Shown here piece after piece: positions 140-52,479 of a stretch of DNA of 64,000 nt (the stretch's first letter is position 1; every line of letters starts with the position of its first letter). The notes beneath the pieces were generated by a model. The model was not told where the DNA came from, made no database searches, and saw only the letters and a list, made by a program, of their open reading frames with translations. This DNA is from a virus, in the IMG/VR virus record IMGVR_UViG_3300015371_000004, positions 51,950 to 115,949 of that record. The stretch is one strand, 5' to 3'. The translations under genes were made by a program, and so were the position numbers.

Positions 140-168
140 GGAACCTTTTTGCCGTATAATACGTCTAA
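140..168 (+). promoter_or_regulatory. ECF-sigma-type promoter GGAAC-N17-CGTCTAA
   Basis: GGAAC at 140-144 and CGTCTAA at 162-168, followed by GGAGG RBS and ATG 187; same architecture at four other sites. Confidence 0.75.
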
Positions 169-3231: not shown

Positions 3232-3247
3232 GTTTGGTGTATTACCC

Positions 3248-3775
3248 CTAGTCCGAGGGCCACGGGGCACGCTCAAGTTCGTATTCTTCCCGGTCTCGCT
3301 CCAGACGCGACCGATGGATCCCCCGCCGATAGCTGGCTTTCGTCTTCCCGCTCCAGCGCCGATTCCGGTGTTCCGCGCGCGCCTGTTGGCGGTACTTGTC
3401 GAGCAGGTCCTTGCTCATCGGCTTCTCAGGCGTGCCGCGAGCCATCGCGTCCAGCGCTTCTGGAGACATCCCTTTGAGGGCCCTAATTCCATGCCGCTGA
3501 AGCGCGGCCAGCTGGGCCTTCAGGTCCGCGTAGATTTCCTGCTGATTTTGCTGCTTGCGCGCGGCCTGCCGCGCCATCTTCTCAGCCCTCCGCTGCTGAT
3601 GGGCAGCGCCGCGCTGCTGGCGCGCCGCGCGCGCCCGGTCCACCGCGCTCATCCCGGTCGACGCGCAGAACTGCCCGCCGCCCGGCCCGGACGGATTATG
3701 GCAGGGGTTGGCTTCGCTGAACGGACGTCCCTCGCTGGCGGGCCATAGTTCCCACATACTCATCCCTCTCGACAA
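3248..3775 (-). CDS. basic hypothetical protein with N-terminal EANPCH...GGQF tag
   Basis: ORF directly after terminase; Arg/Lys-rich. Confidence 0.7.
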   Translation of the reverse strand: MSRGMSMWELWPASEGRPFSEANPCHNPSGPGGGQFCASTGMSAVDRARAARQQRGAAHQQRRAEKMARQAARKQQNQQEIYADLKAQLAALQRHGIRALKGMSPEALDAMARGTPEKPMSKDLLDKYRQQARAEHRNRRWSGKTKASYRRGIHRSRLERDREEYELERAPWPSD

Positions 3776-4656: not shown

Positions 4657-5080
4657 CGGCCTGCGTGCGGGTGAACATCTCGATCACAGCCCGGGCACCC
4701 TGCACGGAGACCCCGGCTTCCTGCAGCTTCTCGGCCGCCGTCCGCGCGCGCTCGGCCTCAGCCTGATCCACGTCCTCGTCGAAGTCGACGTTCTTGGCCA
4801 TGCGCGAGAGGAGCGACATCTCGTTGTAGATTTTCGGGTCGACCTTGCCTTCGGCCCGCTCTCTGAGCACCATCACGGCCACCCGCCACCGCTGCACGTT
4901 GAAGGTCAGCCACGGGATCTTGGCAGGCGCGCCGGTCGTCAAGAGACCGAGCGCCTTGTCCATCTCGGCTTCGGCCTCCTGCAGCTTGCGCGACCCCTCC
5001 TCGTCAGAGGGTGGCGTAAGCGCCGACTCGTTCGCGTGCGGGAGATCCCGCTCGACGACGGTCGCAATGGACTCGCTCAT
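4607..5080 (-). CDS. hypothetical helical protein, possible terminase small subunit
   Basis: position immediately upstream of TerL ATPase; function inferred from synteny only. Confidence 0.45.
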   Translation of the reverse strand: MSESIATVVERDLPHANESALTPPSDEEGSRKLQEAEAEMDKALGLLTTGAPAKIPWLTFNVQRWRVAVMVLRERAEGKVDPKIYNEMSLLSRMAKNVDFDEDVDQAEAERARTAAEKLQEAGVSVQGARAVIEMFTRTQADAKIPQSDPDSPAGRD

Positions 5081-5639
5081 GTTTGGGTACCGGAACTTCG
5101 CACAAAATGGATCGGTGGGTCAACAGCCGCGCCAGCATCTCGGCGTAGCGCTTGGCGATCCGGCTCTCACTGGCGGCAAAGTACGTGGCGGCCTGCGCCA
5201 GATGCTGCCGGACCCGTGGCGACGGCAGCCCGACCCGCTTGGCCGTCTCGGCCTGCGAGGACGTCTGCGAGAACTCCGCCAGAATCTGGGGCATGTGCTC
5301 GGGCGCATCCGGCCAGACCCGGCCCAGATCTCGCCGGACCTCCCAGATCATGAGTCTCGGATGGTCAAGGAGAAACGCTAGCCGCTCGCAGGCGCGCTGC
5401 ATGCGATGGCTGACGGCTTGCTGGGTGAGGTGCAGGGCCTCCCCAATTTGGTCCTGATTTTTTCCGGCGAAGAAATGCAGCTCGATGACGTCACGCTCGA
5501 CTGGCGGGATGGTCTTGAGCAGGCGGCGGACTTGGAGGAGGCGCTCCGGGTTGTGCTCGTCGGCAGGCCGCACAAACTCGATCCATGACCGCAGGTGGAA
5601 GGTCTCGGGATCGATGTCGGTGAGGCTCAGCTCGCGCAT
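5004..5639 (-). CDS. sigma-70 region-4-like HTH protein with a second HTH
   Basis: IPPVERDVIELHFFAGKNQDQIGEALHLTQQAVSHRMQRACERL, plus SQAETAKRVGLPSPRVRQHL. Confidence 0.7.
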   Translation of the reverse strand: MRELSLTDIDPETFHLRSWIEFVRPADEHNPERLLQVRRLLKTIPPVERDVIELHFFAGKNQDQIGEALHLTQQAVSHRMQRACERLAFLLDHPRLMIWEVRRDLGRVWPDAPEHMPQILAEFSQTSSQAETAKRVGLPSPRVRQHLAQAATYFAASESRIAKRYAEMLARLLTHRSILCEVPVPKHERVHCDRRRAGSPARERVGAYATL

Positions 5640-5643
5640 CGGC

Positions 5644-5838
5644 TCACTGAATCGGGAGATGCTGGAGGAGCCACCACCCGTTTTCGGGTAGCTCGGGATG
5701 CTGCTTGAGGTGACGCTCAAGAAGATAGAAGCCAAGGTTCTTGGCCGCGCAGGGCGTTTCCCCTATCGTCTCGAACATCAGCTGCTGTCCCGTCCCCTCC
5801 GTGAAGATCGTTTGGTACTTCCGGACCGGTCGACTCAC
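5644..5838 (-). CDS. hypothetical protein
   Basis: fills gap between NusG-like and sigma-4-like genes with GTGA overlap. Confidence 0.5.
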   Translation of the reverse strand: MSRPVRKYQTIFTEGTGQQLMFETIGETPCAAKNLGFYLLERHLKQHPELPENGWWLLQHLPIQ

Positions 5839-6329
5839 ACCCGCTCCAGCTCGTACAACGCCGCTCGTACCGAGATGTGCCTAGAGTGTAACCGAATTTG
5901 GACATCGGCACGATTTTGCCGTTTGTCGACCCGCTGCACCTTCCCGGTCATGCCCGTCCATGCCCCCAAGAGGAGGCGCACTTTCGAGCCCCGCCGGAGG
6001 AGCCGCGGACGCACCGACCGCCGGACGTCCTTCATCTGGGTCGGCGACAGCCGTTCGAAGGCCTGCCCGTCCGAGGTTCGTACAAGTTTGTCCACAAAAC
6101 GCGACCGCTCGACGCGCTGCACGTGCGCGTCCGGGCTCACCTCAAGGAAGGCGTAGCCCCCGTAGGCGTGGGCCCATGCGATGGTACCGGTGCAAGTTTC
6201 CGCAGGAAAGAAGACGCGAACGCCCGGCAGGTACCGGGCGAAGTCTCTCTGGATGTCAGCCGTGGGGACGTCGGACACCGTGTCCGCCAGCATTGCAATC
6301 ACCCACTCGCTGGCCGCACGCTTTGCCAC
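5835..6329 (-). CDS. nusG: NusG-family transcription factor (NGN + KOW)
   Basis: VFFP...YGGYAFLE NGN-like region; GSKVRLLLGAWTGMTGKVQRVD KOW motif. Confidence 0.75.
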   Translation of the reverse strand: MAKRAASEWVIAMLADTVSDVPTADIQRDFARYLPGVRVFFPAETCTGTIAWAHAYGGYAFLEVSPDAHVQRVERSRFVDKLVRTSDGQAFERLSPTQMKDVRRSVRPRLLRRGSKVRLLLGAWTGMTGKVQRVDKRQNRADVQIRLHSRHISVRAALYELERV

Positions 6330-6356
6330 TCTGAGGCGAGGACTTTACCACAACCG

Positions 6357-7079
6357 CTAGTGGGTCCCCTGCACAACATGCCTACTCAGAAGGTCAGTCA
6401 GGACGTTCGTCTGCCCGATTTGCAGCAGGGCGCCTGCATCTTTGGCGGGATACACCGGGGCGGATACCACGAACCCCTCGAAGGTTCCCATCTGCTGGAG
6501 CTTGAAGGCCGCGGCCCGACCGGGGAGGTCCGTGTCGAGGAGCGCCACCACCAGCTTGGCGTACCGACCAAGGAAGCGCCGCATGGGTCCCGCCACATTG
6601 GCGGTCAGGTTGGCGATCACGTCCGGCGCGCCCGCCGCGCGCACCCCGAAGTAGTCGAAGACGCCCTCCACCAAGACGACGCGCTGGCTCAGCCAGACAG
6701 CCGGGAGGGCTTCGTGCATGCCGAAGGCCCGCGGGTGGGCGCGGCTGACTTGGAAATCCGAATAGGCGTTCTGGCCTGCTTCGAGCTGGTCCGGAAGGAG
6801 CCTGACCTGAAACCCCGTCACACTGCCCATCGGATCCTTCAAGGGGAAGACGAGCCCGCCCCAGACCGGCCAGTGCTTGGTGGCCCACCCCAGAAAGGCC
6901 TTCGTGCCCACCGTGATCGGAGACAGGACCCCCACGTCATGGGCGGCAGCCACCTCCAGCGGGACCCCGCGCCCTTCGAGATAGGCGCGCGCGGCGCTCG
7001 CGTCGGGCGCCGACTGCAGGGCGTCAGAGGACCGTTTGACTAGCTCGCGGGTCCACGGACTTGAAGACGGTTCCGCCAT
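6357..7079 (-). CDS. DnaG-like primase catalytic/TOPRIM core lacking Zn finger
   Basis: ARAYLEGRG, LVFPLKDPMGSVTGFQVR, VLVEGVFD, LDTDLPG..AA, KDAG. Confidence 0.8.
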   Translation of the reverse strand: MAEPSSSPWTRELVKRSSDALQSAPDASAARAYLEGRGVPLEVAAAHDVGVLSPITVGTKAFLGWATKHWPVWGGLVFPLKDPMGSVTGFQVRLLPDQLEAGQNAYSDFQVSRAHPRAFGMHEALPAVWLSQRVVLVEGVFDYFGVRAAGAPDVIANLTANVAGPMRRFLGRYAKLVVALLDTDLPGRAAAFKLQQMGTFEGFVVSAPVYPAKDAGALLQIGQTNVLTDLLSRHVVQGTH

Positions 7080-7683
7080 GCAGGGACTCCTCGGCTTGGT
7101 AGGCCCGGTCAGCGTGGGCCAAAAATTCAGGGAGCTGGGTGACCATCAGGATCTGGAGCTTGAGCGACCGGCTCAGATCCTTGAGGAGCGCCCCGACACG
7201 GGAGAGGTAGCTGCCGTCCATCGAGACCATCGAGAACGGCTCGTCGAGCAGGATGAGCGGGGCCAGCCCCATCCGGCTGACCACGACCACCCGGAGAATG
7301 AAGGCCACCACAGACGCCGGGCCACCGCCGAAGGCATCGACGATCGGCTCGTCCACGTCTTCATGCCCGGGGCGATGGTGCACCAGATGCGGCTCCAGCC
7401 ACGGCTGGCGGAACTTCGTCTGGATGTCGAACCGGAACGTGAGGTCCTGATCGGGGAAGACGGTCTTCAGTCCGTAGGTGACCAGCCGCTCGACCTTGCC
7501 GACCGACTCGGCGCTCATGGTCTGGAGCAGCTTGTCGAGCGTGGCCTGCGTGACGGTCAGGAGCGTCGACTCCTGCTCGCCGCGGTCAACTTCGGCGGTG
7601 AGGGACGCGACGCGCTGCTGCTGTCCGCCGACGAGGCCGACGAGCCGTTCGGTTTGCTGGACGAGTTCGGGTAGGGTTTGCAT
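7024..7683 (-). CDS. SbcC/Rad50-like C-terminal half (signature + Walker B)
   Basis: coiled coil, FGGG signature, LILLDEPF, ILMVTQ. Confidence 0.8.
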   Translation of the reverse strand: MQTLPELVQQTERLVGLVGGQQQRVASLTAEVDRGEQESTLLTVTQATLDKLLQTMSAESVGKVERLVTYGLKTVFPDQDLTFRFDIQTKFRQPWLEPHLVHHRPGHEDVDEPIVDAFGGGPASVVAFILRVVVVSRMGLAPLILLDEPFSMVSMDGSYLSRVGALLKDLSRSLKLQILMVTQLPEFLAHADRAYQAEESLHGGTVFKSVDPRASQTVL

Positions 7684-8084
7684 CAGGGATGAACCTTGCA
7701 AGCGTCACGAGCGCAGTTTTGAAAAGAGGGTCCGTACTCGGCCGCGGATAGATATTTTCCGAGAGGTCAATCCGGCCGTTACACCAGAGCACGCGGTAGC
7801 GCGTACTTCGGACCTCCAACACAATGCCGCGGCTCTCAAACGGCAGCCATGGCCACCCGCGTGACACGACGTCCCCAACTTTGATGTGTCGGTCCTCGAC
7901 CGGCCGCGGATCGCTGGCGGCACTTTTCTTCATGGCTTTTTCTCGGCTAGCTGCTTCAGCGCCAGATCGCACAGCTCGACGAGGACCTTCAGGTCGACGC
8001 CCACCACCGCGCGCGGATGATTGACGACGCACGTCTTCGCGGTCTCGAAGATCCGCTTCAGCGCCTCAATGTCCGGCGCGGCAA

Positions 8085-8369
8085 TCACGCCAGCGCCTCG
8101 TTCGTGATCCGAATGACGTCGCTGCAGCCCGCAATTTCTTTCTTGATCGCGGCGTGCAGCTCGGCGACCGCCTTGTCCAGCTGGGCTTCAAGCGCCTTCA
8201 GCTCGACGTCGGCCTTGTCCGGCTCAACCCCCAGCGCGCGGATCTCCTGCTCGGTCTGCTCCAGCCGGGTCTTGGCCAGCGCCAGATTGGCCTCGGCCTT
8301 CGCGCGCAGCGTCCGCGCCTGACTCTCCAGCTCCCGCAGCTCGACAACTTTTTTGTAGGTCTGATCCAT
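8085..8369 (-). CDS. small coiled-coil protein
   Basis: heptad pattern; preceded by GGGGTATCAC. Confidence 0.65.
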   Translation of the reverse strand: MDQTYKKVVELRELESQARTLRAKAEANLALAKTRLEQTEQEIRALGVEPDKADVELKALEAQLDKAVAELHAAIKKEIAGCSDVIRITNEALA

Positions 8370-8392
8370 GGCGTCTCAGTGATACCCCAACC

Positions 8393-9151
8393 TCACAGCG
8401 ACACAGGCCCGCCGCCCGCCGGGACCTCCGGCAACATGGCCTGCTTGTTCCGGATCGAGACCCGGTAGGCCTCGCACTGCAGCGTGAACGGGCAGTACCG
8501 GCAATGGCTCCCGACCTTCGGAGACGTCAGGCCCGCCTTGAAGTCGAGCATCGTGCGATCGAGTGAGCGATCGAACGCCACGCGCTGGGCGGGCGTGAAC
8601 CGGATCCACGTGACCGTGCCCTTGCGGAAGCGCCACTGGCCCAAGTACGAAGGCTGATACGGCGTTCGCTCCAGCGCCGAGGCGTAGAACCAGAGCTGCT
8701 CCCGGTCGCCCTTGCCGGACTTACCATCGAGGAGTCGGTACCGGTTGTCGAGCCCCTTGACGAGCCAGTCCAGCCGTCCCTCGATCGACACGTCATGGAA
8801 GACCCGGCTGACTTGATACTCGACGAGTGCCGGGCCGACCAGCTGCTCCCGGCGCGCCGTCTCGACAATTTCAGGAATGAGATCGGTGACGACAACCACC
8901 TGACTCATGAGGTCGTTGGGCGTCTCCAGCGCGGCTCGCTGGAGCGCTGCGTACATTTTGGCGGTCGGGTTCGGTGTTTCCCACAGCCGCTCAGTGTAGA
9001 ACCGCTCCATGATCTTGTGCAGAAGCCGCCCACGCTCGCGGCCCTCGGACTGCACCTGCGGGATCTGCTCGGTCCGCCCCTCCCGCCGCCACGCCTGCTG
9101 CTGCGGGCAGCGCCGGAACGACGCGAACTCCGACCAGCCGACGCGTCTCAT
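8393..9151 (-). CDS. PD-(D/E)XK RecB/AddB/Cas4-like nuclease
   Basis: CPQQ, GRLLH, EGRLDWL, LDGKSG, QLWFYA, CRYCPFTLQC (4-Cys staple). Confidence 0.8.
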   Translation of the reverse strand: MRRVGWSEFASFRRCPQQQAWRREGRTEQIPQVQSEGRERGRLLHKIMERFYTERLWETPNPTAKMYAALQRAALETPNDLMSQVVVVTDLIPEIVETARREQLVGPALVEYQVSRVFHDVSIEGRLDWLVKGLDNRYRLLDGKSGKGDREQLWFYASALERTPYQPSYLGQWRFRKGTVTWIRFTPAQRVAFDRSLDRTMLDFKAGLTSPKVGSHCRYCPFTLQCEAYRVSIRNKQAMLPEVPAGGGPVSL

Positions 9152-9342
9152 TCCACTCCTCGACGCTTCAGCTCCTCGGTGATGATCTGGATCCGGGTCT
9201 CGCAGAACTCCACGTTCTCCGCGCGCGGGTCCGCGTCGCGGTCCAGCTTGAACGCCTCCCGCAGCTGCACGAGCCGATCATCAGGCCAGATCGGCGACCG
9301 GTAGAAGGCGCGCGCGTCGTCGTGGCTGCTCCGTGTTTTCAC
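9148..9342 (-). CDS. hypothetical protein
   Basis: overlapping start/stop with neighbours. Confidence 0.5.
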   Translation of the reverse strand: MKTRSSHDDARAFYRSPIWPDDRLVQLREAFKLDRDADPRAENVEFCETRIQIITEELKRRGVE

Positions 9343-10346
9343 GCCACCGCCTCCTCCGCCGCCGTCAGGTACTGCTGGACCCGCGCGCGCACATCGTCTT
9401 CCACGTCGAGCGCCGCGACCCGCTCCGAGAGGGACTGCGTCGACACCAGCGACAGAAAGTCGTCGGCGATCTGCTGCCCCAGCCCGGCCTCGAACTGCGC
9501 GGCTACAGTCTTCTCGTACGCGTAGCGTTTTAGATCAAAAATTTTCTCGGCCGGTTCGACCTTGAGCTTGACAAGGTGTCCCTTGAACTCAAACGTCAAC
9601 CCGTCCTCGCCCTGCGGGCCCATATACTCTGTGATACCCGCATAGATCGTTCGCTGCAGCTCCTCCCCCGCCAACGACCCACGCCCAAGCGCGCCGAAGT
9701 TCAGGAAGAGCTTGGACCCCACGCGCTGCGTGGCGACGGCCGAATGATCGTGGCCGAAGTGGTAGACCTGAAACGGATAGGCCGCCAGCGCTTCATAAGA
9801 GAGCACAGTCTGCCCAAAGAACTGCCCGCCGGTCTTCGACGCAAACGCGTGCGCGAGCACGATGGCAGGCTGGAACGTGCTGACCGTCTTGGCCACCGCC
9901 GCCCACTTGGCCGGGTCCTTCGCGTCCGGCCATGGGATCCCTACGATCTGGACCGGCATAAGCGCAATGCCCTCTAGCCTGACGTCCGTCGGCACGTGGT
10001 AGGGCTGGTAGGACACGTCGATCAGCGCGCCCGTCTCGAAGAGCACCCCGAGGGGCGTCGTGCTGAGCGAGTCGAGCCGGTTGTAGCGCTCGTCGTGATT
10101 GCCGGGAATTGCCAGCACCGGGACGCCCACCGTCTTCAGCCACGCGGCCAGTCGCGCGACGATCGCGTAGGACGTGTTCACCGAATTGAACAGATCCCCG
10201 GCCACCGCGATGACGTTGACCTTCTCCAGCTGCGCAATCTCGGCGACCTGATCGAGCTTGCGGAACATCGTGTCCGGCCAGCTGTCGAGTCGGCTCGACG
10301 GGGTCAGATGCCAAAGATGCCAGTCGTTCGTGTGGAGACACTTCAT
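9339..10346 (-). CDS. SbcD/Mre11-like metallophosphoesterase nuclease
   Basis: DWH, GDLF, PGNHD, LAH, GHDH motifs. Confidence 0.85.
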   Translation of the reverse strand: MKCLHTNDWHLWHLTPSSRLDSWPDTMFRKLDQVAEIAQLEKVNVIAVAGDLFNSVNTSYAIVARLAAWLKTVGVPVLAIPGNHDERYNRLDSLSTTPLGVLFETGALIDVSYQPYHVPTDVRLEGIALMPVQIVGIPWPDAKDPAKWAAVAKTVSTFQPAIVLAHAFASKTGGQFFGQTVLSYEALAAYPFQVYHFGHDHSAVATQRVGSKLFLNFGALGRGSLAGEELQRTIYAGITEYMGPQGEDGLTFEFKGHLVKLKVEPAEKIFDLKRYAYEKTVAAQFEAGLGQQIADDFLSLVSTQSLSERVAALDVEDDVRARVQQYLTAAEEAVA

Positions 10347-11545
10347 CCGAGGAGCGCCTCCAAGTCTTCGTCGATCTGGCCCTGCCCCAACGGGACCCGC
10401 TGGCCACAGACCGGGCAGATTTTCAGGTCATGCAGGGCAGTCGCCACCGCTCCCTCCGCCTGCTCAACGTCCTGACTCGACGCCCCGAAGGCCGCCTCTG
10501 CCATGCGCAGCGAGGCCAGCGCGTTCGCGAGCTGGTTCACCAGCGCGCGCAAGGCCGTCGCCGTGTCCATCGCTTTCGAGTACCCGAGCTGTGGACTTTC
10601 CGGAGGCGGGTGAAGGCCTTTGACCACCCAGAGCTTGCGGAGGCGCGCCGCCAGATCGGCCACGCGCCAGTGACGCTCTTGCAGGACTTCGATGCCCGAC
10701 GGCTCCCGGGCCGGAGGCAGCTCGACCATGACCCCCTTCTGGAGAGCTGCACGCTTGGGGATCAGGTTGGCCAGACGCTGGCCGATGTTCGCCTGCGCTT
10801 CAATCGGCCCAAGGTCGACGGCTGTGGGGAGGTCGGCAGCCACCGCGGCCTGCAGCATCCGGCGCCGTGCCAGCGCCGCAGTCAGGCGGGAGACCCGGTC
10901 ACGCAGGGCATCAACCCGCACACTCTCCAGCTTCAACCGCTCGACCGCCTCCACGAGCTTCGCGACCGGCGGCTCGATCGTCTCCACAATCGCCTGTGCC
11001 TTGGTCAGGTCTGCCCGCCTCAGCCCCAGCAGCTGGCGCGCCGACCTAAGATCCTTGGCGCACGCCGCGCTCGCCCGAAGCAGAATGTCCAGCCGGGACG
11101 CCCGCGTGAGGATCTCGCTGACCGTGCTCCCCGGCAGCTGCAGCATGAAGATCGGATCCAGCTGGCCCCCGACCTGCGGGCGGATCGACTCCTTGTCATC
11201 GAGCTTCAGATCCCGGTAGCCCGCGTCGACCAGTGGCTGTGGCGCGTAGCGGTTCACGTTGGTGAAGGGCTCACCGTTCACCGAGAACTCGTTCACGCTC
11301 TTGCCCTTCTCCCAGACCACATGAAGCGGCGGCCCGTCCTTGGCCGGAACGTCCGTCAGCTCGACGCGCGTCTTTGACTCGCCCTTGCGGACGAAGCCTG
11401 CGCCCGGCCGATTGAAGAGGGCCCCGGTCACCGCCCGGATCAGCGCGCTCTTGCCGAGGTTCGAGCGGCCGACGATCACCGTCAGCCCCTCAGCTTCCAC
11501 CTCGGCTGATTCGAGCGACTGGAAATTTTTAACGGAGATTTTCAT
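10343..11545 (-). CDS. SbcC/Rad50-like N-terminal half (Walker A to zinc hook)
   Basis: VKNFQS, GRSNLGKSA, Q-loop, coiled coil, terminal CPVCG hook. Confidence 0.85.
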   Translation of the reverse strand: MKISVKNFQSLESAEVEAEGLTVIVGRSNLGKSALIRAVTGALFNRPGAGFVRKGESKTRVELTDVPAKDGPPLHVVWEKGKSVNEFSVNGEPFTNVNRYAPQPLVDAGYRDLKLDDKESIRPQVGGQLDPIFMLQLPGSTVSEILTRASRLDILLRASAACAKDLRSARQLLGLRRADLTKAQAIVETIEPPVAKLVEAVERLKLESVRVDALRDRVSRLTAALARRRMLQAAVAADLPTAVDLGPIEAQANIGQRLANLIPKRAALQKGVMVELPPAREPSGIEVLQERHWRVADLAARLRKLWVVKGLHPPPESPQLGYSKAMDTATALRALVNQLANALASLRMAEAAFGASSQDVEQAEGAVATALHDLKICPVCGQRVPLGQGQIDEDLEALLG

Positions 11546-11753
11546 GTGGCCACGCCACGCGGGTCCGTGTAGATCAGCTCGACCTTCTCGACATGTGAGT
11601 ACTTGATCTCATGGTGGTCTGCGGCTGCCAAGCCCAGCTCACGCACCTGCGAGACGGAGTCATCGAGGGCAAATTCCTTCTGATAGACGAAGGAGACCAC
11701 GTGCTGCCACCGAACCCCCAACGGCGACACCTCGACTCGTGCGCCGTAGATCG

Positions 11754-12809
11754 TTACGCGCCACTGAGCCATTTGAGGATCCCCGCGTCGATGAGCTTCT
11801 GCTTGATCGCCTGCATGAAGGGCGGCGTGTTTAGCGCATGGTCGTAGAGCGCCGAGTCGCCCTGCCACTTCCCGCTCTGCCCGCCCCCGTCGTCGAAGAC
11901 GAACCACGCGGCCTTCTGCTCAATGACCCCGGCCGCCTTGGCCGCATCGAGCAGCGTCTGGATGTTGTCGATCCCGTACACCTGCCGCTCTTCATCGAAG
12001 CGGATCGTGAACTCCACCTTACGGAAGGCAGGCATCACCTTGGACTTGGCGATCTCGGCTTCGTGAATGCTGGCCACCGGGACTTCGCGCTCCTTGCCGA
12101 GAAAGTCGACGGTCTTGCGCGTCTTCGAGGACTTCTTGATCTGGCGGACCCGAATCCGCATCGAGGCGTAGTACTTCAGGGCGTTGCCGCCGGACGTCTC
12201 TTCGCTGTCCTTCCCAAACCCGCCGAAGCCCGTCGCGCGCAGCTGATTGATGAAGACCACGGCAGCCTTGTTCCGTTTGATCTCGTGGAGGAGACGCGGC
12301 AGCTCCTTCGAGAGGACCCGCGCGCGCGAGGCCAGCGCGGTGTCTTCCCCAACCTGCCCTTCCAGCTCCTTCTCAGGCACCATCGCGGCCACCGAATCGA
12401 CCACCACCAGATCCACGCCCGCCTTGACCATCCGGTCGACGATTTGGAGGGTATCCTCAGCCGTCCGCGGCGCCGCAAAGAGCCCCTTACCCTGATCCTT
12501 GTAGTCGAACCCAAGGCTGGCGGCGTACCGAAGGTCCAAGGCGTTTTCCACGTCCAAGTAGACCGGGTAGAGCCCGTGGATCTGCGCCGACGCGCAGGCC
12601 GTACACGCGAGCGTCGACTTACCGCCGCTGAACGGTCCGGCGACTTCGCAGATCCGGCTACGCGGGAAGCCGCCGATCCCCGTGATGACATCGATCGCGT
12701 ACGAGCCCGAGGAGACCGCTTCGGTGTGCTCGTCGATCTCCAGCGCCTCTGGGTGGTGGCGGGTGATGTGCTTGACGGCCTCGTCGAGGTTCTTGCGATT
12801 GACAGGCAT
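11754..12809 (-). CDS. recA: RecA recombinase
   Basis: GGFPRSRICEVAGPFSGGKST, VVDSVAAM, FINQLR, SGGNALKYYASMR. Confidence 0.95.
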   Translation of the reverse strand: MPVNRKNLDEAVKHITRHHPEALEIDEHTEAVSSGSYAIDVITGIGGFPRSRICEVAGPFSGGKSTLACTACASAQIHGLYPVYLDVENALDLRYAASLGFDYKDQGKGLFAAPRTAEDTLQIVDRMVKAGVDLVVVDSVAAMVPEKELEGQVGEDTALASRARVLSKELPRLLHEIKRNKAAVVFINQLRATGFGGFGKDSEETSGGNALKYYASMRIRVRQIKKSSKTRKTVDFLGKEREVPVASIHEAEIAKSKVMPAFRKVEFTIRFDEERQVYGIDNIQTLLDAAKAAGVIEQKAAWFVFDDGGGQSGKWQGDSALYDHALNTPPFMQAIKQKLIDAGILKWLSGA

Positions 12810-13304
12810 CTACCCCCTGCATCTGCGAACGAGGCCCATGAAGGTCTGGGCGTCCACCACGGCGTATAGCCGCGATCCCGCGCGTCTGAAAAACAGCACC
12901 GCCGTCGGTTGATCCTTCGTCACGGCAGCTTCCGCCTGCTTGAGCGCCTGCCAGATATTGAGCTGCTCTTGATTCTTGACTTCGGTCGCAAACGGAAACT
13001 GGGCGCTCGCGAACGGAGAGAAATGCAGGTCGACGCCCATCTGCGCGCCCGCTTTCACCCAGACGTCGCCGTCCTGCAGCCCCAGCTTGTCCCGGATGAG
13101 GGCCGCCACTTCCAGCACGGCCGCCCGGCCCTTCTGCTTCGAGCTTTGGCCCCCGCCCTTCGCGCGCCCGACGCTGCGGGACTTCAGCACGGCTTCCGCT
13201 CGCCGCGCGTACACCTTCCAGCACTCGTTGCAGTCCCGCCGCTTTCCGGACGGCAAGTTCGGAAAGCGCGGCAGACGGCCGTGCTCGTCACAGACCGGCT
13301 GCAC
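12810..13304 (-). CDS. Holliday junction resolvase-like PD-(D/E)XK nuclease
   Basis: SKQKGR..E, GVDL, FATEVKNQE..NIWQALKQA. Confidence 0.7.
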   Translation of the reverse strand: MQPVCDEHGRLPRFPNLPSGKRRDCNECWKVYARRAEAVLKSRSVGRAKGGGQSSKQKGRAAVLEVAALIRDKLGLQDGDVWVKAGAQMGVDLHFSPFASAQFPFATEVKNQEQLNIWQALKQAEAAVTKDQPTAVLFFRRAGSRLYAVVDAQTFMGLVRRCRG

Positions 13305-13307
13305 GCC

Positions 13308-14126
13308 TTAGCCGAGCAAGTCGTCGAGCGAGGCTCCCGGGAGCGGACCGGAGGCGGCGACTGCCGCGCCGGTAGGGGCCTCCCCAATCAGCTTGCGGAT
13401 CTCGTCGTCAGGCACGTCACGCCCGATGGCTCGCCGCAGTTCGCTGTGCACTGCGTCGAGCCAGTTCTTGAGCGCGACCCCGTACTCGGCCTGAAACTTC
13501 GCGTGCGCGACCATGGCCTCCGCACACGGGACGATCGTCATGTTCTGGTACTGCTCCTCAGTGCAGGTCACCTTGACGTCGTGGGTGGCCAGATCGTGCT
13601 CCTTGTGAACCTCCTGCAGCGTCTGGAAAATCTTCGCGCCGAAGACCCAGATTTTCAGCTCGAACGAGAACGGCTTCCGGAAGGCCCCCTTCGGGTCGGT
13701 CGCGTAGACGACCACCGGCGAGGCGAACTTCTTGCTCGACTCGCCGAGCATCTCGCAGCAGCCTTCCTTCTTCGTCATGACCTCGTTGTAGAGCGTCTTG
13801 CCGTCCGGCCCCTGCGTGGTCGTGCGCCGGAAGGACGAGCGACAGATCACCGGGCCCTTGGTCGCGTCATGGAAGTGACGCCGGGCCGCCTGAATCCGCT
13901 TGAGGTCCAAGACCGCCAGCCGGTCCGTGATGTTCTTGCGGCCTTTGTAGAAGTCGACTTGTGTCCGCGCCGCCGCGGCCTCATCGCCGATCTCAACCGT
14001 CTCGTACTGCGGCAGATCCCGGAACGATTGCCCAATCGCGTTGGGCTGCTGCGCCGTGGCCGGGGGTTGCGGAGCGGTCTGAGGCAGCGCCGCGTCGAGC
14101 GGATCCGCCACTGTGGGGGTATCCAT
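13308..14126 (-). CDS. single-stranded DNA-binding protein (gp32-like)
   Basis: His/Cys cluster, KIWVFG, HDVKVT, acidic C-tail SLDDLLG; recombination-operon context. Confidence 0.6.
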   Translation of the reverse strand: MDTPTVADPLDAALPQTAPQPPATAQQPNAIGQSFRDLPQYETVEIGDEAAAARTQVDFYKGRKNITDRLAVLDLKRIQAARRHFHDATKGPVICRSSFRRTTTQGPDGKTLYNEVMTKKEGCCEMLGESSKKFASPVVVYATDPKGAFRKPFSFELKIWVFGAKIFQTLQEVHKEHDLATHDVKVTCTEEQYQNMTIVPCAEAMVAHAKFQAEYGVALKNWLDAVHSELRRAIGRDVPDDEIRKLIGEAPTGAAVAASGPLPGASLDDLLG

Positions 14127-14176
14127 AGGGGAATTCTCCAGAAAATTTTGTGGGCCGAAGTTGGCCGTCGTGGCAG

Positions 14177-14593
14177 TTATACCCCGCGGCCCGGGTATTC
14201 TTTCGGCGGCCCAATGACCCCCGCCAGCCCGTCCTCGTAGTCCGTCTTGGGCTTGTAATTGTAGTCGTTGGCGTAGCCCATCACCCGCTTGAGAGCCGTC
14301 CCCATGACGTAGCTCACCCGCAGCCGCTCCCGCTTGACCTCGAAGAGTGCGCCGGTCGTCGGGTCCCGCCGCCGGGTCGCCGACAGCCGCTTGGTCCGGA
14401 GCGCGCCGAGGCCCGCCGGGAACTGGTACTTGCCCAGCTCGAACAACGACTTGAAGAGGCTCCGGATGACCACCATGTACAGTTCCTTCATCAGGTCCCG
14501 GCTCACGTGGTGCTGGTGCTTCTTGAGGTATTCCCGCGTGAGGGTCGCCATCTCGGCAAAGGCCTCTTCCTTGTAGTCCTTCTGATTCTTCAT
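14177..14593 (-). CDS. HU/IHF-family DNA-binding protein
   Basis: GLGALRTKRLSATRRRDPTTGALFEV...VSYVMGTALK beta-arm pattern. Confidence 0.7.
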   Translation of the reverse strand: MKNQKDYKEEAFAEMATLTREYLKKHQHHVSRDLMKELYMVVIRSLFKSLFELGKYQFPAGLGALRTKRLSATRRRDPTTGALFEVKRERLRVSYVMGTALKRVMGYANDYNYKPKTDYEDGLAGVIGPPKEYPGRGV

Positions 14594-14597
14594 CGGC

Positions 14598-15143
14598 TCA
14601 CTCCAGTATGTCTTCGAGACGCTCGTCGGCCGCCTCACGTTCCACCGGCTCGCGGGCATAGAAGGCGCGCACACCCGCCTGCGCCTGATCGACGTCCGGG
14701 TCGGTCGTCGCACGAATCGTTTCGGCCTCGGTCACGGGCGGCGGCCGGTACCCGGGGGCCTGCATCCCCACCTTCAGGCACTCCAAGAGCAGACGCACAT
14801 CCGAGGAGACCCGTGCCAGCTCCCGGCGCCGGACATGCGCGCTCTCCAACAGGAACTTCAGGCGCTCGTGCTCCGTCCGGATCACGTCGAGCTTCTCCCG
14901 CTCGCCTGCCTTGGACGACGACGGCGAGATCCGGACCACGGCCTCCTGCGCGATGCGTGAGGGCAGCACCTCGCTGATGGCCCGATTGACCGCCACGACC
15001 ACCTCGGCGACCTCGGCCTGCTTCCCGCGGGCCTCGATCAGCTTCTCCTGCAGGTAGACCGGGCCGTACGTTGGGTCGTGCGCGATCGGCACGACCATCC
15101 GGTCGAGCGTCCGGTACAGCGCCTTAATGTCGTCGTCAGTCAT
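14598..15143 (-). CDS. hypothetical coiled-coil protein
   Basis: operon-coupled ORF. Confidence 0.6.
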   Translation of the reverse strand: MTDDDIKALYRTLDRMVVPIAHDPTYGPVYLQEKLIEARGKQAEVAEVVVAVNRAISEVLPSRIAQEAVVRISPSSSKAGEREKLDVIRTEHERLKFLLESAHVRRRELARVSSDVRLLLECLKVGMQAPGYRPPPVTEAETIRATTDPDVDQAQAGVRAFYAREPVEREAADERLEDILE

Positions 15144-15820
15144 AATCGACAGCTCTCATACGCCTCGGCCGCATTCGATCGTAGATGTTCTACCACGCGG
15201 GCAAGGAGCGCCGGGATCGACTGCCGGGCACTCGGCTTGTGCAAGAGGTACGACGGGTGCACCAGCGGGATCACCTGCAGGACGCGCGACGGAGCGTCAT
15301 CGAGACGCACGCGCATCGGGGCAAAGCTCATCTTCCCCATGCTCGGCGAATGCACCCCCAAGACAAACCGTGACGCCTCCTCGCCCAAGGTCAGGAGCAC
15401 CTCCACGTGCTCGAACGTCTTCAGCTCCTCGCGCAGCCACTTCGTCCCGCACACCTGCACTTCCTTTTTGGTGGGCTTCCGATCGTCGTGCGTGTGGCAC
15501 TTCACGAGATTCATCACCAGAATTTTCTGCCGGTCGATCGCCATAGCCTGCAACCAGTCGTTCAAGACATCGCCCGCCCGGCCAACGAAGGGGCTTCCGT
15601 ACTGGTCTTCCTCGCGCCCCGGGTTCCGCCCCAGCACGCCGATCCGCGCCAAGAGGGGGCCATCGCCGGGCACGACCCGCGTGGCCTCCAGCCGCGCCGA
15701 GCAGGCCGTGCAGGCCAGCAGATCCGCGTACCACGGCACGTCGCTGTACCACTGGACACCTGACGGCCGCGGCTCAGGTTCCCCGCCGAGGATCGCGTCG
15801 AGGTCGACCGCGTCACTCAC
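15140..15820 (-). CDS. uracil-DNA glycosylase family 4
   Basis: CTAC, VPGDG, GRNPGREEDQYGSPFVGRAG, NLVKC, HPSYLL. Confidence 0.9.
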   Translation of the reverse strand: MSDAVDLDAILGGEPEPRPSGVQWYSDVPWYADLLACTACSARLEATRVVPGDGPLLARIGVLGRNPGREEDQYGSPFVGRAGDVLNDWLQAMAIDRQKILVMNLVKCHTHDDRKPTKKEVQVCGTKWLREELKTFEHVEVLLTLGEEASRFVLGVHSPSMGKMSFAPMRVRLDDAPSRVLQVIPLVHPSYLLHKPSARQSIPALLARVVEHLRSNAAEAYESCRL

Positions 15821-17082
15821 GAGAGCAGCTGCTGGGCTTCCGGCCACAGCTCCACCTGACTCTCGGGCAGCGGCTGCACCGAGCCCCACGTCGACCCGGC
15901 GCTGACCGACCAGTGCATGGCCGCCCGCTCGCGCCAGCGCGCCACTGTCGGCGTCGTCACCAGCGTGGCGTGCAGCTCCCGTAGAAACCCCCGGACATCA
16001 GCGTCGACCGGCAGCTCGGCCGCGACGGCGTGCCGGGTCAGGATCATCCGGGCCCGCCACTGCTGGTCGAGCGCGCGCGCCAGCCACGCCAAGAGTTCGC
16101 CGGTCTCCTCGTAGACCCGCTGCTCCTGCGCTGGATACGCCGACAGCACGCCTTCATAGACCGAGGCCGACGGCAACCCCTGCGCCACTGCATACTCGTC
16201 CGGCGTGCTCCACGTGATCGGGTCCTCGTGAGCCGCCATGGCCGTCCGGACAAACGGCGTCGACAGGGAAAACTGGGCCCAAAATTTTCCGGACTCGGAT
16301 GGCACCGCGACTCGAAGTTCGGTCGGCAGCGTATTGAGCGCCGGGCCAGCCGCCGCAAAGGTCCAGTGCCGGTGGAACCGCCACACCGGGTTCAGGTAGA
16401 CGTAGATGCCATCCCGTTCCGACGAGGCCACGCTGGCTGCCAATCCCCCCGCGCGCTGCGCGCAGAGGTCAGCCCGGCGCCACTCCTCGTACGTCCTGAG
16501 CCAGACGGGATCTTGGCTCACGGTCTTCCACAGCTTCGACCGGCGCACCGCGCGCACCGCCACCGTCCCGAGCGCAGGCTTCAGGGCAGGCGTGAGCCGA
16601 TTGACGATCGCGACCTGCTCATCGACGACAGCCTTGTACTTGGCCTCATCGAACACGACACCGTGCCGATTGAGCGCCACCAGTACGGGCGCCACCACCG
16701 CATTTTCCACCGGGCGCGCCAAGGGCTGATCAACGAACATGGCTCGCTCGACCGCCGACTCCAGCGACGTCACATGCCAGTCCGCATCGACTCTCGCGAA
16801 CACCTGCTCGACGCTCAGGTCCTGCAGGTGGTCCCACGCGATCGACTGACGAATCCCCGGCTGCAACGTCCGCAGGACGTCGACCACGTCCCATGTCGAC
16901 ACGAGACCCCGATGCTCTGTGAGCACCGTCGCGCAGGCCATCCAGTCAGCCGACGTCCATTCCCGTGTGTCGCCGCCGTAGGCCTCGCCATCCCGGACTG
17001 CGACCAGATAGCCCGCCCCAGCAGCCAGACCCAGTCGGCCACCGATGCCCGTCAGCGCTTTCAGATCGTGGAAGGTCTTCAC
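15817..17082 (-). CDS. degenerate (apparently inactive) family-A DNA polymerase paralog
   Basis: PVLVALNRHGVVFD, GPALNTLP..LR, motif A position FSLSTPFVR, motif C position MILTRHAV, C-terminal SAGSTWG. Confidence 0.55.
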   Translation of the reverse strand: MKTFHDLKALTGIGGRLGLAAGAGYLVAVRDGEAYGGDTREWTSADWMACATVLTEHRGLVSTWDVVDVLRTLQPGIRQSIAWDHLQDLSVEQVFARVDADWHVTSLESAVERAMFVDQPLARPVENAVVAPVLVALNRHGVVFDEAKYKAVVDEQVAIVNRLTPALKPALGTVAVRAVRRSKLWKTVSQDPVWLRTYEEWRRADLCAQRAGGLAASVASSERDGIYVYLNPVWRFHRHWTFAAAGPALNTLPTELRVAVPSESGKFWAQFSLSTPFVRTAMAAHEDPITWSTPDEYAVAQGLPSASVYEGVLSAYPAQEQRVYEETGELLAWLARALDQQWRARMILTRHAVAAELPVDADVRGFLRELHATLVTTPTVARWRERAAMHWSVSAGSTWGSVQPLPESQVELWPEAQQLLS

Positions 17083-17579
17083 GCGAGCACCGGCTGAAGC
17101 GCGCCGAGCAGCGCCGCATGGTCCTTCTTCGTGATCCGGCCCGTCCGATCCACCCGCTCAATCACCGGGAGTAGCTCCGGCTTCGCCAGCAGGAACTCCC
17201 GCAGCTCACGGATGTAAAGGTCGTCGGCCTGCGTGGCGGCCTTCGCCGTCCGCGCGTCGAGCCGGTACTTGTTCTGCCACGGCCCGCCGCTGTCCACGCG
17301 GCTGTAGGCCCGATCGAGCTGGAGAGGATGCAACCGGCGGGAAGCAGCGCGATGTTTGTTCCGCGCGACACTTTGACACACGAGGTAGAGGTAGGACGTG
17401 AAGGCCGAGCGGTCCTTGGTGTAGCGGTCGAGCAGCCCGTACTTGTGCACGCGCAGGTAGACGTCCTGCACCATGTCATCAAGGTCCTCCTGCCCGATCG
17501 ACGTCACCGTCTTGAGGAAAGCCCGTATCTTGCCGTCGTAGCGCTCTACCAGTGCCTCTAGGGTCCGCGGTGCGTCCAT
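17079..17579 (-). CDS. ECF-like sigma factor, region 2 only
   Basis: LVERYDGKIRAF...DLDDMVQDVYLRV...SAFTSYLYLVCQSVARNKHR; no recognisable region-4 HTH. Confidence 0.75.
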   Translation of the reverse strand: MDAPRTLEALVERYDGKIRAFLKTVTSIGQEDLDDMVQDVYLRVHKYGLLDRYTKDRSAFTSYLYLVCQSVARNKHRAASRRLHPLQLDRAYSRVDSGGPWQNKYRLDARTAKAATQADDLYIRELREFLLAKPELLPVIERVDRTGRITKKDHAALLGALQPVLA

Positions 17580-17598: not shown

Positions 17599-17627
17599 TT
17601 AGACGTTGGGTTGGCCTAAATTGTTCC
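17599..17627 (-). promoter_or_regulatory. ECF-type promoter upstream of sigma-2 gene
   Basis: reverse complement GGAAC-N17-CGTCTAA, then AGGAG RBS. Confidence 0.75.
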
Positions 17628-19037: not shown

Positions 19038-19056
19038 CTCAGCCGGGTAATACCCC

Positions 19057-25367: not shown

Positions 25368-25412
25368 TTAGACGTAAGGTAGGGTCAAAAGGTTCCATTA
25401 CAGAACTGTAAT
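25368..25412 (-). promoter_or_regulatory. ECF-type promoter with palindromic operator
   Basis: GGAAC-N17-CGTCTAA; ATTACAG-AA-CTGTAAT at 25397-25412. Confidence 0.75.
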
Positions 25413-27315: not shown

Positions 27316-27360
27316 TTAGACGTGTGGAAGGGGCAAAAGGTTCCAATTACAGAAGTGTAA
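27316..27360 (-). promoter_or_regulatory. ECF-type promoter with imperfect operator
   Basis: GGAAC-N17-CGTCTAA; ATTACAG-AA-GTGTAA at 27346-27360. Confidence 0.75.
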
Positions 27361-34884: not shown

Positions 34885-34933
34885 GTTATACCCCAACCCT
34901 GTGACCCAACCTGTCACGCGGCCGGGGTATAAC
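34885..34933. promoter_or_regulatory. back-to-back GGGGTATAAC elements at the strand switch
   Basis: GTTATACCCC at 34885-34894 (minus) and GGGGTATAAC at 34924-34933 (plus). Confidence 0.75.
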
Positions 34934-36521: not shown

Positions 36522-37183
36522 GGAGGATCCCATGTGTAAATGCGGATGCAACGTCGGGGATTGCTCATGCGACACGGGCGCGTACGCCTTTTTCCGGTGG
36601 GTGCAGGAGGAGTTTGCGGAGTGGGCCGCGAACCTGATCTTCTGGCACTGGCGCTGAGGGAAGCCATGGCTCGCGTACAGATTCACGTCGTCGATCGCTA
36701 TGCCAACGGGGCTGCCATCAATCGGGCCTACGATCAGGCCGCCACCGACTTTCAGCAGCGCGGTGGCGCCCATGTGACCCTCGATGAAGGCCTCATGACC
36801 GTGCGGGTCACGATCACCCCGGATATTGGCGACTGGGCGGCTATCCACCCTGATCGCAAAGGGGACTGGCCCACGATGCTTCGATGACCGCGCCACCCAA
36901 GCCGACGCCACCTCCGCTCCGAGAGCAGGCGGACTTCACAGTCAGCACGATCATCGGGCTCTGGTTCATCGTGGTCCTCTTAATCGTCGTCGGCGTCACC
37001 GTGGGTGCGCTGATCTGGCCGCGACCCGGGGTATAACCCTCCGCACGCCATGAATGTTCCGGTCAAGCGGTTACTTCGACGTAACTACAGGTGGCGTGTC
37101 AGGCACTACCAGTTCGTGGAAATGGGCCTGCTTTGGGCGTTTCTATCTAGCCTGATGGTGCTCGCATATTTTCTCGATGGCCG

Positions 37184-51860: not shown

Positions 51861-52479
51861 CCGATGCCCAATAACCCCCCGATCCCCTTCGGGTCTGCGC
51901 TGCCGATCAACGTCAAGGCGCCGATTCACCATGCGGCCAACGGCAGCTGCGTCTTCACGTGCAGCTGCGGCATGGGGCCGATGATGATCGGCAGCTACGA
52001 CTCGGCGGTCGTCTGCACGGGCTGCCACACGCTCTGGCAGATTCAGGAAGCGCACATGCGGCGGACGCCGGAGGGCGTCGAGGTGCTCGTCAAGCTCGGG
52101 CACACCCAAGCGCCAGCCACGAGGCCCATGTGAGCTACCAGCGCTGGACGACCGGCGACGCCTACGTGTACGGCTACGAGATCCAGTCGACAGGGGAGCG
52201 CGGGTTCGTCTGTTGCGCCTGCGAGCTGCAGACGGACATCACCCAGCCGAGCGGCTACCTGAACCACTTCACGACGTACCGCGGGATCATCGCGCATTTG
52301 GAGACCTACCACACCGACTCCGAGTACGCCTTGGAGACCCTCCGCGCCGAGGCTGAGGTGATGGGGCTCGATGGGGTCTACCCGTTGCGTGATGATCCAA
52401 ACTTCGACCGCCTCACCGAGATCGCCATCCGCCTCAATGCTGACCCGGCTCGCCAAGCCAAAGGCCGGGTGAACCCTAG

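Follow-up and report, generated by a model that had tools for sequence, protein, structure and literature searches.

Two-subunit sigma factors are known from T4 (gp55/gp33), SPO1 (gp33/gp34), SigO-RsoA and Tn916 (Sig7-Sig8) (bioRxiv 10.64898/2026.10.01.756105). Here, we analysed a 64-kb stretch of phage DNA, hereafter called the window, whose numbering is used unless another record is named. The window is the final part of the IMG/VR record IMGVR_UViG_3300015371_000004, which is 115,949 bp long, has a G+C content of 65% and is estimated to be 76% complete. It carries a gene for a 166-aa protein related to region 2 of the extracytoplasmic function (ECF) sigma factors and, 11.4 kb away, a gene for a 211-aa protein in which a sigma region 4 is followed by a second helix-turn-helix (HTH) domain (hereafter the sigma4-HTH2 protein). 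The latter gene lies beside that of a NusG paralogue. The original prediction for this DNA was headed by a split sigma factor and offered two schemes. In the first one, a host ECF sigma induces the 166-aa factor, which in turn reads -35-less GGGGTANNAC promoters. In the second one, the two proteins form a bipartite sigma that reads GGAAC-N17-CGTCTAA. From the data presented below, we favour, with slightly less than even confidence, two separate transcription devices over two halves of one sigma: a compact sigma for the -35-less promoters, and a late module made of the NusG paralogue and the sigma4-HTH2 protein.

In SigO-RsoA and in Tn916 Sig7-Sig8, the two subunits are encoded side by side, and initiation at one promoter depends on both. 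The window phage shares with these systems, as with SPO1 gp33/gp34, the distribution of region-2-like and region-4-like functions over separate polypeptides. However, its two genes are distant from each other, the two protein families differ in the breadth of their distribution, and the region-4 protein has another fixed neighbour. By analogy, the 166-aa protein would work most like T4 gp55. Both are small phage proteins with the fold of sigma region 2, and in both cases the promoters, assigned by us in the case of the window phage, consist of a -10-like element only (TATAAATA in T4, GGGGTAnnAC here). Unlike gp55, the 166-aa protein is recognised by Pfam as a clear member of the ECF-type region 2 group, and it has an extra C-terminal domain of three helices. 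Moreover, no link to a gp33 or to a sliding-clamp coactivator was found here, and the promoters head replication genes, not late genes. With ECF sigmas such as E. coli RpoE and P. aeruginosa AlgU, the 166-aa protein has in common the sequence and fold of region 2, the lack of regions 1.1 and 3, and a GGAAC...CGTC promoter upstream of its gene. It differs in being 20-40 residues shorter than typical ECF sigmas and in having no detectable region 4. Nor was an anti-sigma gene recognised next to its gene; the neighbour is a 421-aa open reading frame (ORF) that matched no Pfam or PHROG family, anti-sigma folds not having been looked for.

For the second device, comparison can be made with the NusG paralogues RfaH, LoaP, UpxY and ActX and with lambda Q. 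The NusG-like gene of the window resembles the former group by its NGN + KOW architecture and by its position at the start of a very long run of co-directional genes. Unlike the RfaH-type paralogues, it is phage-encoded and conserved across many large phages, and no ops-like or leader element was identified. We know of no member of this group that is paired with a sigma region-4 protein. A literature search returned no description of a phage NusG + sigma4 pairing, nor of a phage ECF sigma without region 4. Lambda Q uses an HTH to bind DNA, also binds the beta flap and is encoded just before the late operon. The sigma4-HTH2 protein is similar in its gene position and its HTH, on which Pfam gave a weak match to Phage_antitermQ (PF06530; E 0.0045, 17.4 bits, below the cut-off of 26 bits). 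In contrast to Q, it has no significant membership of that family by sequence, it combines a canonical four-helix sigma4 domain with a second HTH, and its gene is coupled to a NusG-like gene.

The 166-aa ECF-derived sigma

In the 166-aa ORF, Pfam detected Sigma70_r2 (PF04542) at residues 10-82, with an E value of 2.1e-7 and 31.1 bits against a cut-off of 24 bits. No other Pfam family was found, r4 included. As in the ECF group, regions 1.1 and 3 are absent: region 2 is the sole region detected, and the linker that follows it is predicted to be disordered. An hhalign comparison of its family with 103 ECF sigmas gave an E value of 3e-32, and its best sequence matches in the PDB are to region 2 of E. 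coli sigmaE (about 30% identity). The AlphaFold2 (AF2) model, calculated from a 44-row alignment, had a mean predicted local distance difference test score (pLDDT) of 86.7, and three C-terminal helices (residues 117-131, 134-146 and 151-165) were predicted with confidence (pLDDT >90). With VIA, the model superposed on ECF sigma2 domains with Z scores of 8-10.5 and root-mean-square deviations (rmsd) of 1.6-3.1, the entries 1or7, 2mao and 8z6g being among the best PDB matches. Superposition on T4 gp55 (PDB 7d7d chain F) gave a Z score of 7.3 and an rmsd of 2.3 over 93 residues. Foldseek searches of the PDB and of BFVD returned no match at E <= 0.001 for this model or for that of the 211-aa protein.

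The family of the 166-aa protein is small. A profile search of 1.8 billion representative proteins returned three full-length relatives, of 153, 159 and 169 aa; the remaining matches were ordinary ECF sigmas of about 190-210 aa, in which region 2 was matched. With tblastn, the sigma of Rhodothermus phage RM378 was the sole match (E 7e-4). A search of viral contigs returned no relatives, and one of metagenome contigs returned one distant region-2 match. The ECF pattern of regions 2.1-2.4 is conserved in all four family members, which also have a common C-terminus (...PEL..VIERVDRTGR.T..D...L..LQPVLA) with an identical end point. Since this end is conserved in the four proteins, and since the stop codon of the gene overlaps the start of the next one, the short length of the 166-aa protein is genuine. 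On the same two grounds, the idea that the ORF is a full-length sigma broken by a frameshift was ruled out. The overlap with the next gene, which encodes the 421-aa ORF (15817..17082, (-) strand), amounts to 4 nt, so that the two genes are translationally coupled.

The comparisons below draw on the relative IMGVR_UViG_3300043579_000184 (hereafter G001), a record of 129,940 bp that is 100% complete according to CheckV and has 51 genes collinear with the window phage. The sigma gene lies upstream of the uracil-DNA glycosylase (UDG) gene in both phages, just upstream of it in G001, which has no counterpart of the 421-aa ORF at this position. The G001 sigma has 184 aa. Its region 2 is recognised by Pfam (r2, E 5e-8) and is 31% identical to that of the 166-aa protein; when used as a query in viral contigs, the G001 sigma found itself only. 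A hidden Markov model (HMM) of region 4, built from the 103 ECF sigmas, recognised the C-terminus of the G001 protein with an E value of 1e-7 and 20.7 bits and gave about 0 bits on all four members of the 166-aa family. Likewise, hhalign compared the 166-aa tail with ECF C-termini at a probability of 0.3%. Neither of the registers obtained for the tail is significant. In the MAFFT alignment, the tail falls on the region-4 HTH, with a short deletion; in global hhalign alignments, to the ECF sigmas as to the G001 orthologue, it covers region 4.1 and the first HTH helix and stops short of the recognition helix. In the reading that we favour, the C-terminal domain is probably a reduced region 4 that would still dock on RNA polymerase without reading a -35 element. 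The description of this gene as an ECF-like region 2 without a region-4 HTH thus holds for region 2, seen both by Pfam and in the AF2 model, and for the lack of a region 4 detectable by sequence. It does not hold in the sense of a bare region 2, as the predicted structure includes a conserved three-helix domain of the protein's own.

Putative promoter classes in the window phage and in a relative

Two DNA motifs of the window occur far more often than expected by chance. For GGGGTANNAC, 18 copies were counted versus 0.88 expected, and none of 100 shuffled sequences reached 18. All copies are co-oriented with the local genes. GGAAC-N15-19-CGTCTAA occurs four times versus 0.04 expected. In the whole record, there are 23 sites of the GGGGTAnnAC class, many of them located 6-21 nt before a start codon; the frequent distances of 6-16 nt would correspond to leaderless or near-leaderless mRNAs. 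Among the genes behind GGGGTANNAC are those of an SNF2 helicase and of the DnaB helicase, the one that follows PolA, and neighbours of a radical SAM enzyme gene. No conserved -35 element was found upstream of the GTAnnAC motif, either in the window phage or in G001. The ECF-type class counts about nine full-consensus copies in the record (GGAAC[CT]TTTT...ACGTCTAAATA), most of which are followed by a strong Shine-Dalgarno sequence and a small gene. One of these copies is located upstream of the 166-aa sigma gene (Table 1). A scan for sigma70-type promoters around the 166-aa and 211-aa genes returned none, and no terminator-like site was found between the sigma gene and the operon upstream of it.

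An inverted repeat, TTACA-N4/5-TGTAA, adjoins the -35 element of most ECF-type promoters (25397-25412 and 27345-27360 on the (-) strand of the window; 14531-14614 and 51888-51930 in the numbering of the whole record). Two divergent promoter pairs share such palindromes. By its appearance, the repeat could be an operator at which a repressor or activator of the phage acts.

Neither the ECF-type class nor the GGGGTANNAC class exists in G001. In their place, k-mer enrichment brought out two analogous classes. The first one, (C)TGTATAAC (GTATAAC), has 13 copies, all on the gene strand; seven of them lie 6-19 nt before start codons, and one lies 9 nt before the NusG-like gene. The second one comprises 14 promoters of the sigma70 consensus (TTGAC-N17-TATAAT-like) whose spacers contain a CCACAGGTGG palindrome; a Shine-Dalgarno sequence and a small gene come next. 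A single GTAnnAC site occupies orthologous positions in the two phages: that at 14176 of the window, before a 272-aa gene, corresponds to that at 45874 of G001 (CTGTATAAC), 76 nt upstream of a 269-aa gene. A search for intergenic motifs common to both phages gave nothing beyond GC-rich noise, and the late regions (packaging and structural genes) of both phages yielded no recurring promoter motif.

The small genes that follow ECF-type promoters in the window have orthologues in G001, and the orthologue of the gene at 187-546 is driven there by the sigma70-type class. In both phages, the class with -35, -10 and operator also precedes the phage sigma gene, the G001 sequence at this place being TTGACA-N17-CATACT. 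Judged from these sequences, this class behaves as if it were read by host holoenzyme and had been swapped between the phages, being of ECF type in the window phage and of sigma70 type in G001. The -10-only GTAnnAC class is the one that both phages kept, together with the sigma gene. Primary sigmas need T-7 in the sigma70 -10 element. As the last position of GTAnnAC is an invariant C, a dedicated reader is suggested.

Following the reading that we favour, a host ECF holoenzyme would read GGAAC-N17-CGTCTAA and turn on the 166-aa sigma gene, as it would at the other eight ECF-type promoters of the phage. The 166-aa sigma would then steer the host core polymerase to the -10-only GGGGTAnnAC promoters, that is, to the replication, recombination and DNA-metabolism genes (middle genes). 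This corresponds to the first scheme of the original prediction, which agrees with the comparison with G001 and fits best without being proven. The more general claim of a multi-step phage transcription programme, with both cis and trans parts in the window, is supported. If the 166-aa protein does read GGGGTAnnAC, an ECF-type sigma can shed -35 recognition and act from the -10 element alone. Such a protein would bridge, as a naturally occurring intermediate, the ordinary ECF sigmas and T4 gp55, which is highly divergent; it would also provide a small orthogonal part for synthetic circuits. The replacement of one promoter class by another before orthologous genes would in turn be a clean case of phage retargeting of host holoenzymes.

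The ECF-type promoter in front of the sigma gene, which ends 19 nt before the start codon, can also be taken as a sign of autoregulation. The 166-aa protein would then be a compact ECF sigma that reads GGAAC-N17-CGTCTAA, its own promoter included, with a tail acting as a minimal region-4 HTH; the primary holoenzyme of the host, perhaps altered by a phage factor, would recognise the GGGGTAnnAC sites as extended -10-like, -35-independent promoters. This is consistent with a sigma2 domain most similar to region 2 of sigmaE and AlgU, and with the MAFFT register of the tail. Also, some ECF sigmas align nearly to the end of the family profile (in P0095, for instance, profile positions 6-162 with residues 23-180), Foldseek alignments to full-length sigmaE cover 159-176 columns, and a language-model search with the tail gave sigma4-type clusters with scores of 0.79-0.81, to be taken as a lead only. 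However, the region-4 HMM distinguished the four family members from the G001 orthologue, and hhalign found no likeness of the tail to ECF C-termini. Moreover, the orthologous sigma gene and the small genes of G001 stand behind sigma70-consensus promoters, the ECF-type class being absent there, so that the ECF class looks host-read. The invariant C in place of T-7 also argues against reading of GTAnnAC by a primary sigma. Taking these points together, we consider autoregulation possible but on balance unlikely.

The 166-aa protein could, alternatively, be a decoy or inhibitor which occupies the beta-prime clamp helices and shuts off host transcription, GGGGTAnnAC being read by something else or being no promoter. 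The lack of a recognisable region 4 and the tiny, fast-evolving family would be compatible with such a function. In contrast, the region 2.1-2.4 pattern is kept in all four members, and the motif is strictly co-oriented, intergenic, placed 6-21 nt before start codons and conserved in its core in G001, which fits a promoter class with a dedicated reader. We give this alternative little credence.

The NusG paralogue and the sigma4-HTH2 protein

In the 211-aa ORF, Pfam detected Sigma70_r4 (E 7e-16) and r4_2 (E 4e-14) at residues 35-88 and HTH_24 (E 5.7e-6) at about residues 124-148; r2 was not found by Pfam. The original description of this gene, a region-4-like HTH plus a second HTH without region 2, is therefore correct, as is its placement beside a NusG paralogue and upstream of the terminase gene (Table 1). 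With VIA, the four helices formed by residues 27-96 of the model superposed on nineteen sigma region-4 structures with Z scores of 8-10.2 and rmsd of 0.7-3.8. The second domain (residues 98-174) was modelled with pLDDT >90, and both ends of the protein are predicted to be disordered. For this second domain, BFVD gave no informative match, and the Atlas matches were the protein's own virus family and TPR-like helical proteins. The PHROG matches of the whole protein are sigma factors and transcriptional regulators. In the Atlas, several virus-only clusters of 65-182 members are named by the region-4 domain alone. PDB entry 9n9q contains, as chain C, a 261-aa RpoE of an 'RNA-guided transcription complex' that aligns with positions 35-169 of the sigma4-HTH2 family profile, covering both parts (E 0.0011). 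Judging by this alignment, it is possibly the closest protein of known structure in which region 4 precedes a further C-terminal domain.

Used alone, the NusG-like protein of the window gave no match in Pfam. Its family profile (32 members) aligned with residues 3-156 of the full-length bacterial NusG 8ehq_G (E 5.6e-7) and with Spt5 KOW domains (E 8e-11). A pattern scan of IMG/VR returned 68 loci with relatives of the sigma4-HTH2 protein (27-38% identity), both domains usually being covered, on contigs of 16-619 kb, most of them >60 kb. When an HMM made from three NusG-like proteins was run on all ORFs of these loci, a NusG-like gene was found directly upstream and on the same strand in 65 of the 68, with E values from 1e-29 to 1e-81. 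The other three loci correspond to one paralogue and two weak region-4-only matches. Many loci show an overlap of 4-8 nt between the two ORFs, and in the relatives generally they abut or overlap, the 195-nt spacer between them being peculiar to the window phage. Further upstream, a homologue of the Toprim primase was found in 55 and one of the 225-aa gene in 45 of the 68 loci. From the adjacency in 65 loci, we conclude that the NusG paralogue is the fixed genomic partner of the sigma4-HTH2 protein. The complex of the two proteins predicted from 32-row alignments, without controls, obtained scores of 0.30 and 0.27 compared to a mark of 0.32, and this result counts neither way. Searching genome contigs with the sigma4-HTH2 family returned four contigs of metagenome-assembled genomes, which are uninformative on the host.

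The pair does not depend on a protein like the 166-aa sigma. A jackhmmer search with the latter gave no match in the 68 loci. PF04542 was present in 10 of the 50 records carrying the module, though most of these records are fragments and its absence thus means little. Where region 2 was inspected in such records, it belonged to complete sigmas (r1.2-r2-r3-r4, or r2 + r4), and in the 485-kb record LR745208.1, which has two sigma4-HTH2 paralogues, no region 2 was found at E <= 1. The NusG/sigma4 module thus exists without any region-2-only partner, and the two families do not travel as an obligate pair; the split sigma factor that headed the original prediction is not supported.

These distributions bear on the bipartite sigma, in which the 166-aa protein would provide region 2 and the 211-aa protein region 4 for joint reading of GGAAC-N17-CGTCTAA on the core polymerase. 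A scan of the whole 116-kb record did return exactly one r2 gene and one r4 gene, the 166-aa family co-occurs with the NusG/sigma4 module in the window phage, in G001 and probably in a third phage, and two-subunit sigmas exist in T4, SPO1, SigO-RsoA and Tn916. However, the two genes are 11.4 kb apart in different modules, and the region-4 family is tied to the NusG-like gene and occurs with complete sigmas or, as in the 485-kb record, with no region 2. In addition, the recognition helix of the sigma4-HTH2 protein is nearly identical in the two phages (TQQAVSHR in the window phage, SQQAVSHR in G001). As G001 is devoid of the GGAAC...CGTC class, this argues against reading of GGAAC by the 211-aa protein. 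Finally, the 166-aa protein has a conserved C-terminal domain of its own, and its G001 orthologue has its own region 4. The NusG companion, the complete or missing region 2 of the relatives, the recognition helix and the C-terminal domain together disfavour the second scheme of the original prediction, and we consider a bipartite sigma improbable.

The position of the 211-aa gene, two genes upstream of the terminase ATPase gene here and in G001, could also indicate a small terminase subunit (TerS), with the HTHs acting on a pac or cos site and without any role in transcription. An N-terminal HTH is frequent in small terminases, the 211-aa protein has a basic C-terminal tail, and one BFVD row bears the name 'Terminase small subunit', at only E 0.19 and TM 0.18. 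Nevertheless, a homologue of the terminase ATPase follows the sigma4-HTH2 gene in G001 and L010 only, the two closest loci, and none was found nearby in about 60 others, which keep the NusG-like gene. Neither Pfam nor the PHROGs gave a TerS family, the fold is that of a canonical four-helix sigma4 domain, and a separate 157-aa ORF directly precedes the terminase ATPase gene. We rejected the TerS identity on this distribution and regard it as highly improbable; by position, the 157-aa ORF is a better candidate for the small subunit.

For sigma factors and for NusG, the docking sites are established: the beta flap is bound by region 4, the beta-prime clamp helices by the NGN domain. Accepting two separate devices, the 211-aa protein would work with the NusG paralogue; the genes of the two stand just ahead of the packaging and structural genes, here and in G001. 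Its sigma4 domain would bind the beta flap and the NGN domain the clamp helices, and the polymerase would become processive or resistant to termination over a late region of about 57 kb. The long co-directional block, entered past the NusG paralogue, suggests processive antitermination. A more specific proposal can be put forward, though we hold it to be unlikely. The NusG paralogue and the sigma4-HTH2 protein would make up an undescribed two-protein RNA-polymerase factor of large phages, with the NGN domain at the clamp-helix (region 2) site and sigma4 at the beta flap, either replacing sigma at both docking points or retaining the polymerase after sigma leaves. The second HTH would be the DNA reader for late transcription, and the 166-aa protein beside this factor would be a gp55-like truncated ECF sigma. 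As a conserved and often translationally coupled pairing in dozens of phages of 60-620 kb, the NusG paralogue and the sigma4 protein would form a widespread transcription module, central to a large clade of big phages.

Several points weigh against two separate devices in the form proposed here. We infer every assignment of a protein to a promoter from sequence; that the NusG/sigma4 pair acts in antitermination is deduced from its domains and the place of its genes. The sigma2 domain most resembles region 2 of sigmaE, which reads GTC-type -10 elements, and an ECF-type promoter before an ECF-like sigma gene is a classic sign of autoregulation. On the strand of the sigma gene, eight GGGGTANNAC sites precede it, so that the temporal order is not obvious. 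The G001 sigma is 31% identical in region 2 and keeps region 4, and it may therefore differ in promoter preference. The C-terminal domain of the 166-aa protein gives no sigma4 signal with the HMM or with hhalign, and the alignment used for its AF2 model contained ECF sigmas. It would be unusual for a phage to depend on a host ECF sigma for its early genes. The missing 24% of the genome could also encode another sigma.

Gene layout and further features

A gene call based on GC3, the G+C content at third codon positions, gave 152 genes. Two arms part at about 34,900. The leftward arm comprises UDG, RecA, an SbcCD-like protein, a PD-(D/E)XK nuclease and the Toprim primase, then the packaging and structural genes; the rightward arm comprises the SNF2 helicase, DnaB, PolA and others. 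The block common to the window phage and G001 around the second device contains the NusG-like gene, the sigma4-HTH2 gene (37% identity), a 146-aa gene (in G001) and the terminase ATPase gene. Parts of the record turn up in rhizosphere and soil metagenome DNA sequencing runs; RNA runs did not appear among those listed. A megablast search of the region against a phage collection gave zero matches. The coordinates of the features are collected in Table 1.

Table 1. Positions of the genes, promoters and other elements discussed, in window numbering except for the last row
Feature	Position	Strand	Evidence and remarks
ECF-derived sigma, 166 aa	17079..17579	-	sigma2 about 7-94, disordered linker 95-116, three-helix C-terminal domain 117-165 (Pfam r2, AF2, VIA)
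Sigma4-HTH2 protein, 211 aa	5004..5639	-	disordered N-terminus, sigma region 4 aa 27-96, five-helix second HTH domain 98-174, basic disordered tail (Pfam, AF2, VIA)
NusG paralogue (NGN + KOW), 164 aa	5835..6329	-	phrog_6386 'transcription antiterminator' E 8e-9; family profile
Terminator-like hairpin with T-rich tail	5730..5746	-	within the 195-nt spacer between the NusG-like and sigma4-HTH2 genes; consensus scan, count not above chance
Acidic helical ORF, 157 aa	4607..5080	-	between the sigma4-HTH2 and terminase ATPase genes; no Pfam or PHROG family; homologue at the same position in G001
Terminase large-subunit ATPase domain, 292 aa	3778..4656	-	Walker A GSGSGKG, Walker B MDEAAF; phrog_2 E 0.0024 (weak); 46% identical to the G001 orthologue
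Uracil-DNA glycosylase	15140..15889	-	Pfam UDG E 6.5e-29; G001 orthologue 35% identity; synteny anchor
ECF-type promoter GGAAC-N17-CGTCTAA of the sigma gene	17599..17627	-	3' end 19 nt before the ATG of the 166-aa gene
ECF-type promoter of a small-gene island	140..168	+	motif scan
ECF-type promoter, TTACAGTTCTGTAA palindrome adjoining -35	25368..25396	-	motif scan
ECF-type promoter, TTACACTTCTGTAA palindrome adjoining -35	27316..27344	-	motif scan
GGGGTAATAC promoter-like site	3239..3248	-	7 nt before an in-frame ATG (leaderless geometry)
GGGGTATCAC promoter-like site	8379..8388	-	motif scan
GGGGTATAAC promoter-like site	14176..14185	-	50 nt upstream of the 272-aa gene
GGGGTATTAC promoter-like site	19047..19056	-	heads a three-gene operon just upstream of the sigma gene
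Divergent GGGGTATAAC pair	34885-34894, 34924-34933	-, +	leftward and rightward gene arms part here
Sigma70-type promoters of G001 with CCACAGGTGG	e.g. G001 36936-36990, 90240, 91273, 95378		L083-L089

The terminase large-subunit homologue has only 292 aa with the ATPase motifs, and the arrangement in G001 is alike (294 aa). No nuclease-domain family was detected in this gene or in the adjoining gene (3248-3775, (-) strand). In LR745208.1, a clamp-loader-like gene (DNA_pol3_delta2) is located upstream of a NusG/sigma4 pair (L003, 5493-7379), with weak PT-HINT and Intein_splicing matches below the Pfam cut-offs. The head and packaging region of the window also contains a 371-aa protein (1047-2162, (-) strand) with a zeta-toxin/AAA_33 kinase-like domain (E 1e-21), which matches a PHROG named 'minor head protein'. 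In G001, a repeated coding segment (...GTTGTACTCG... on the opposite strand) occurs near the starts of at least six genes of the structural region, at 67812, 71329, 76070, 77732, 81886 and 101059 (L086-L088).

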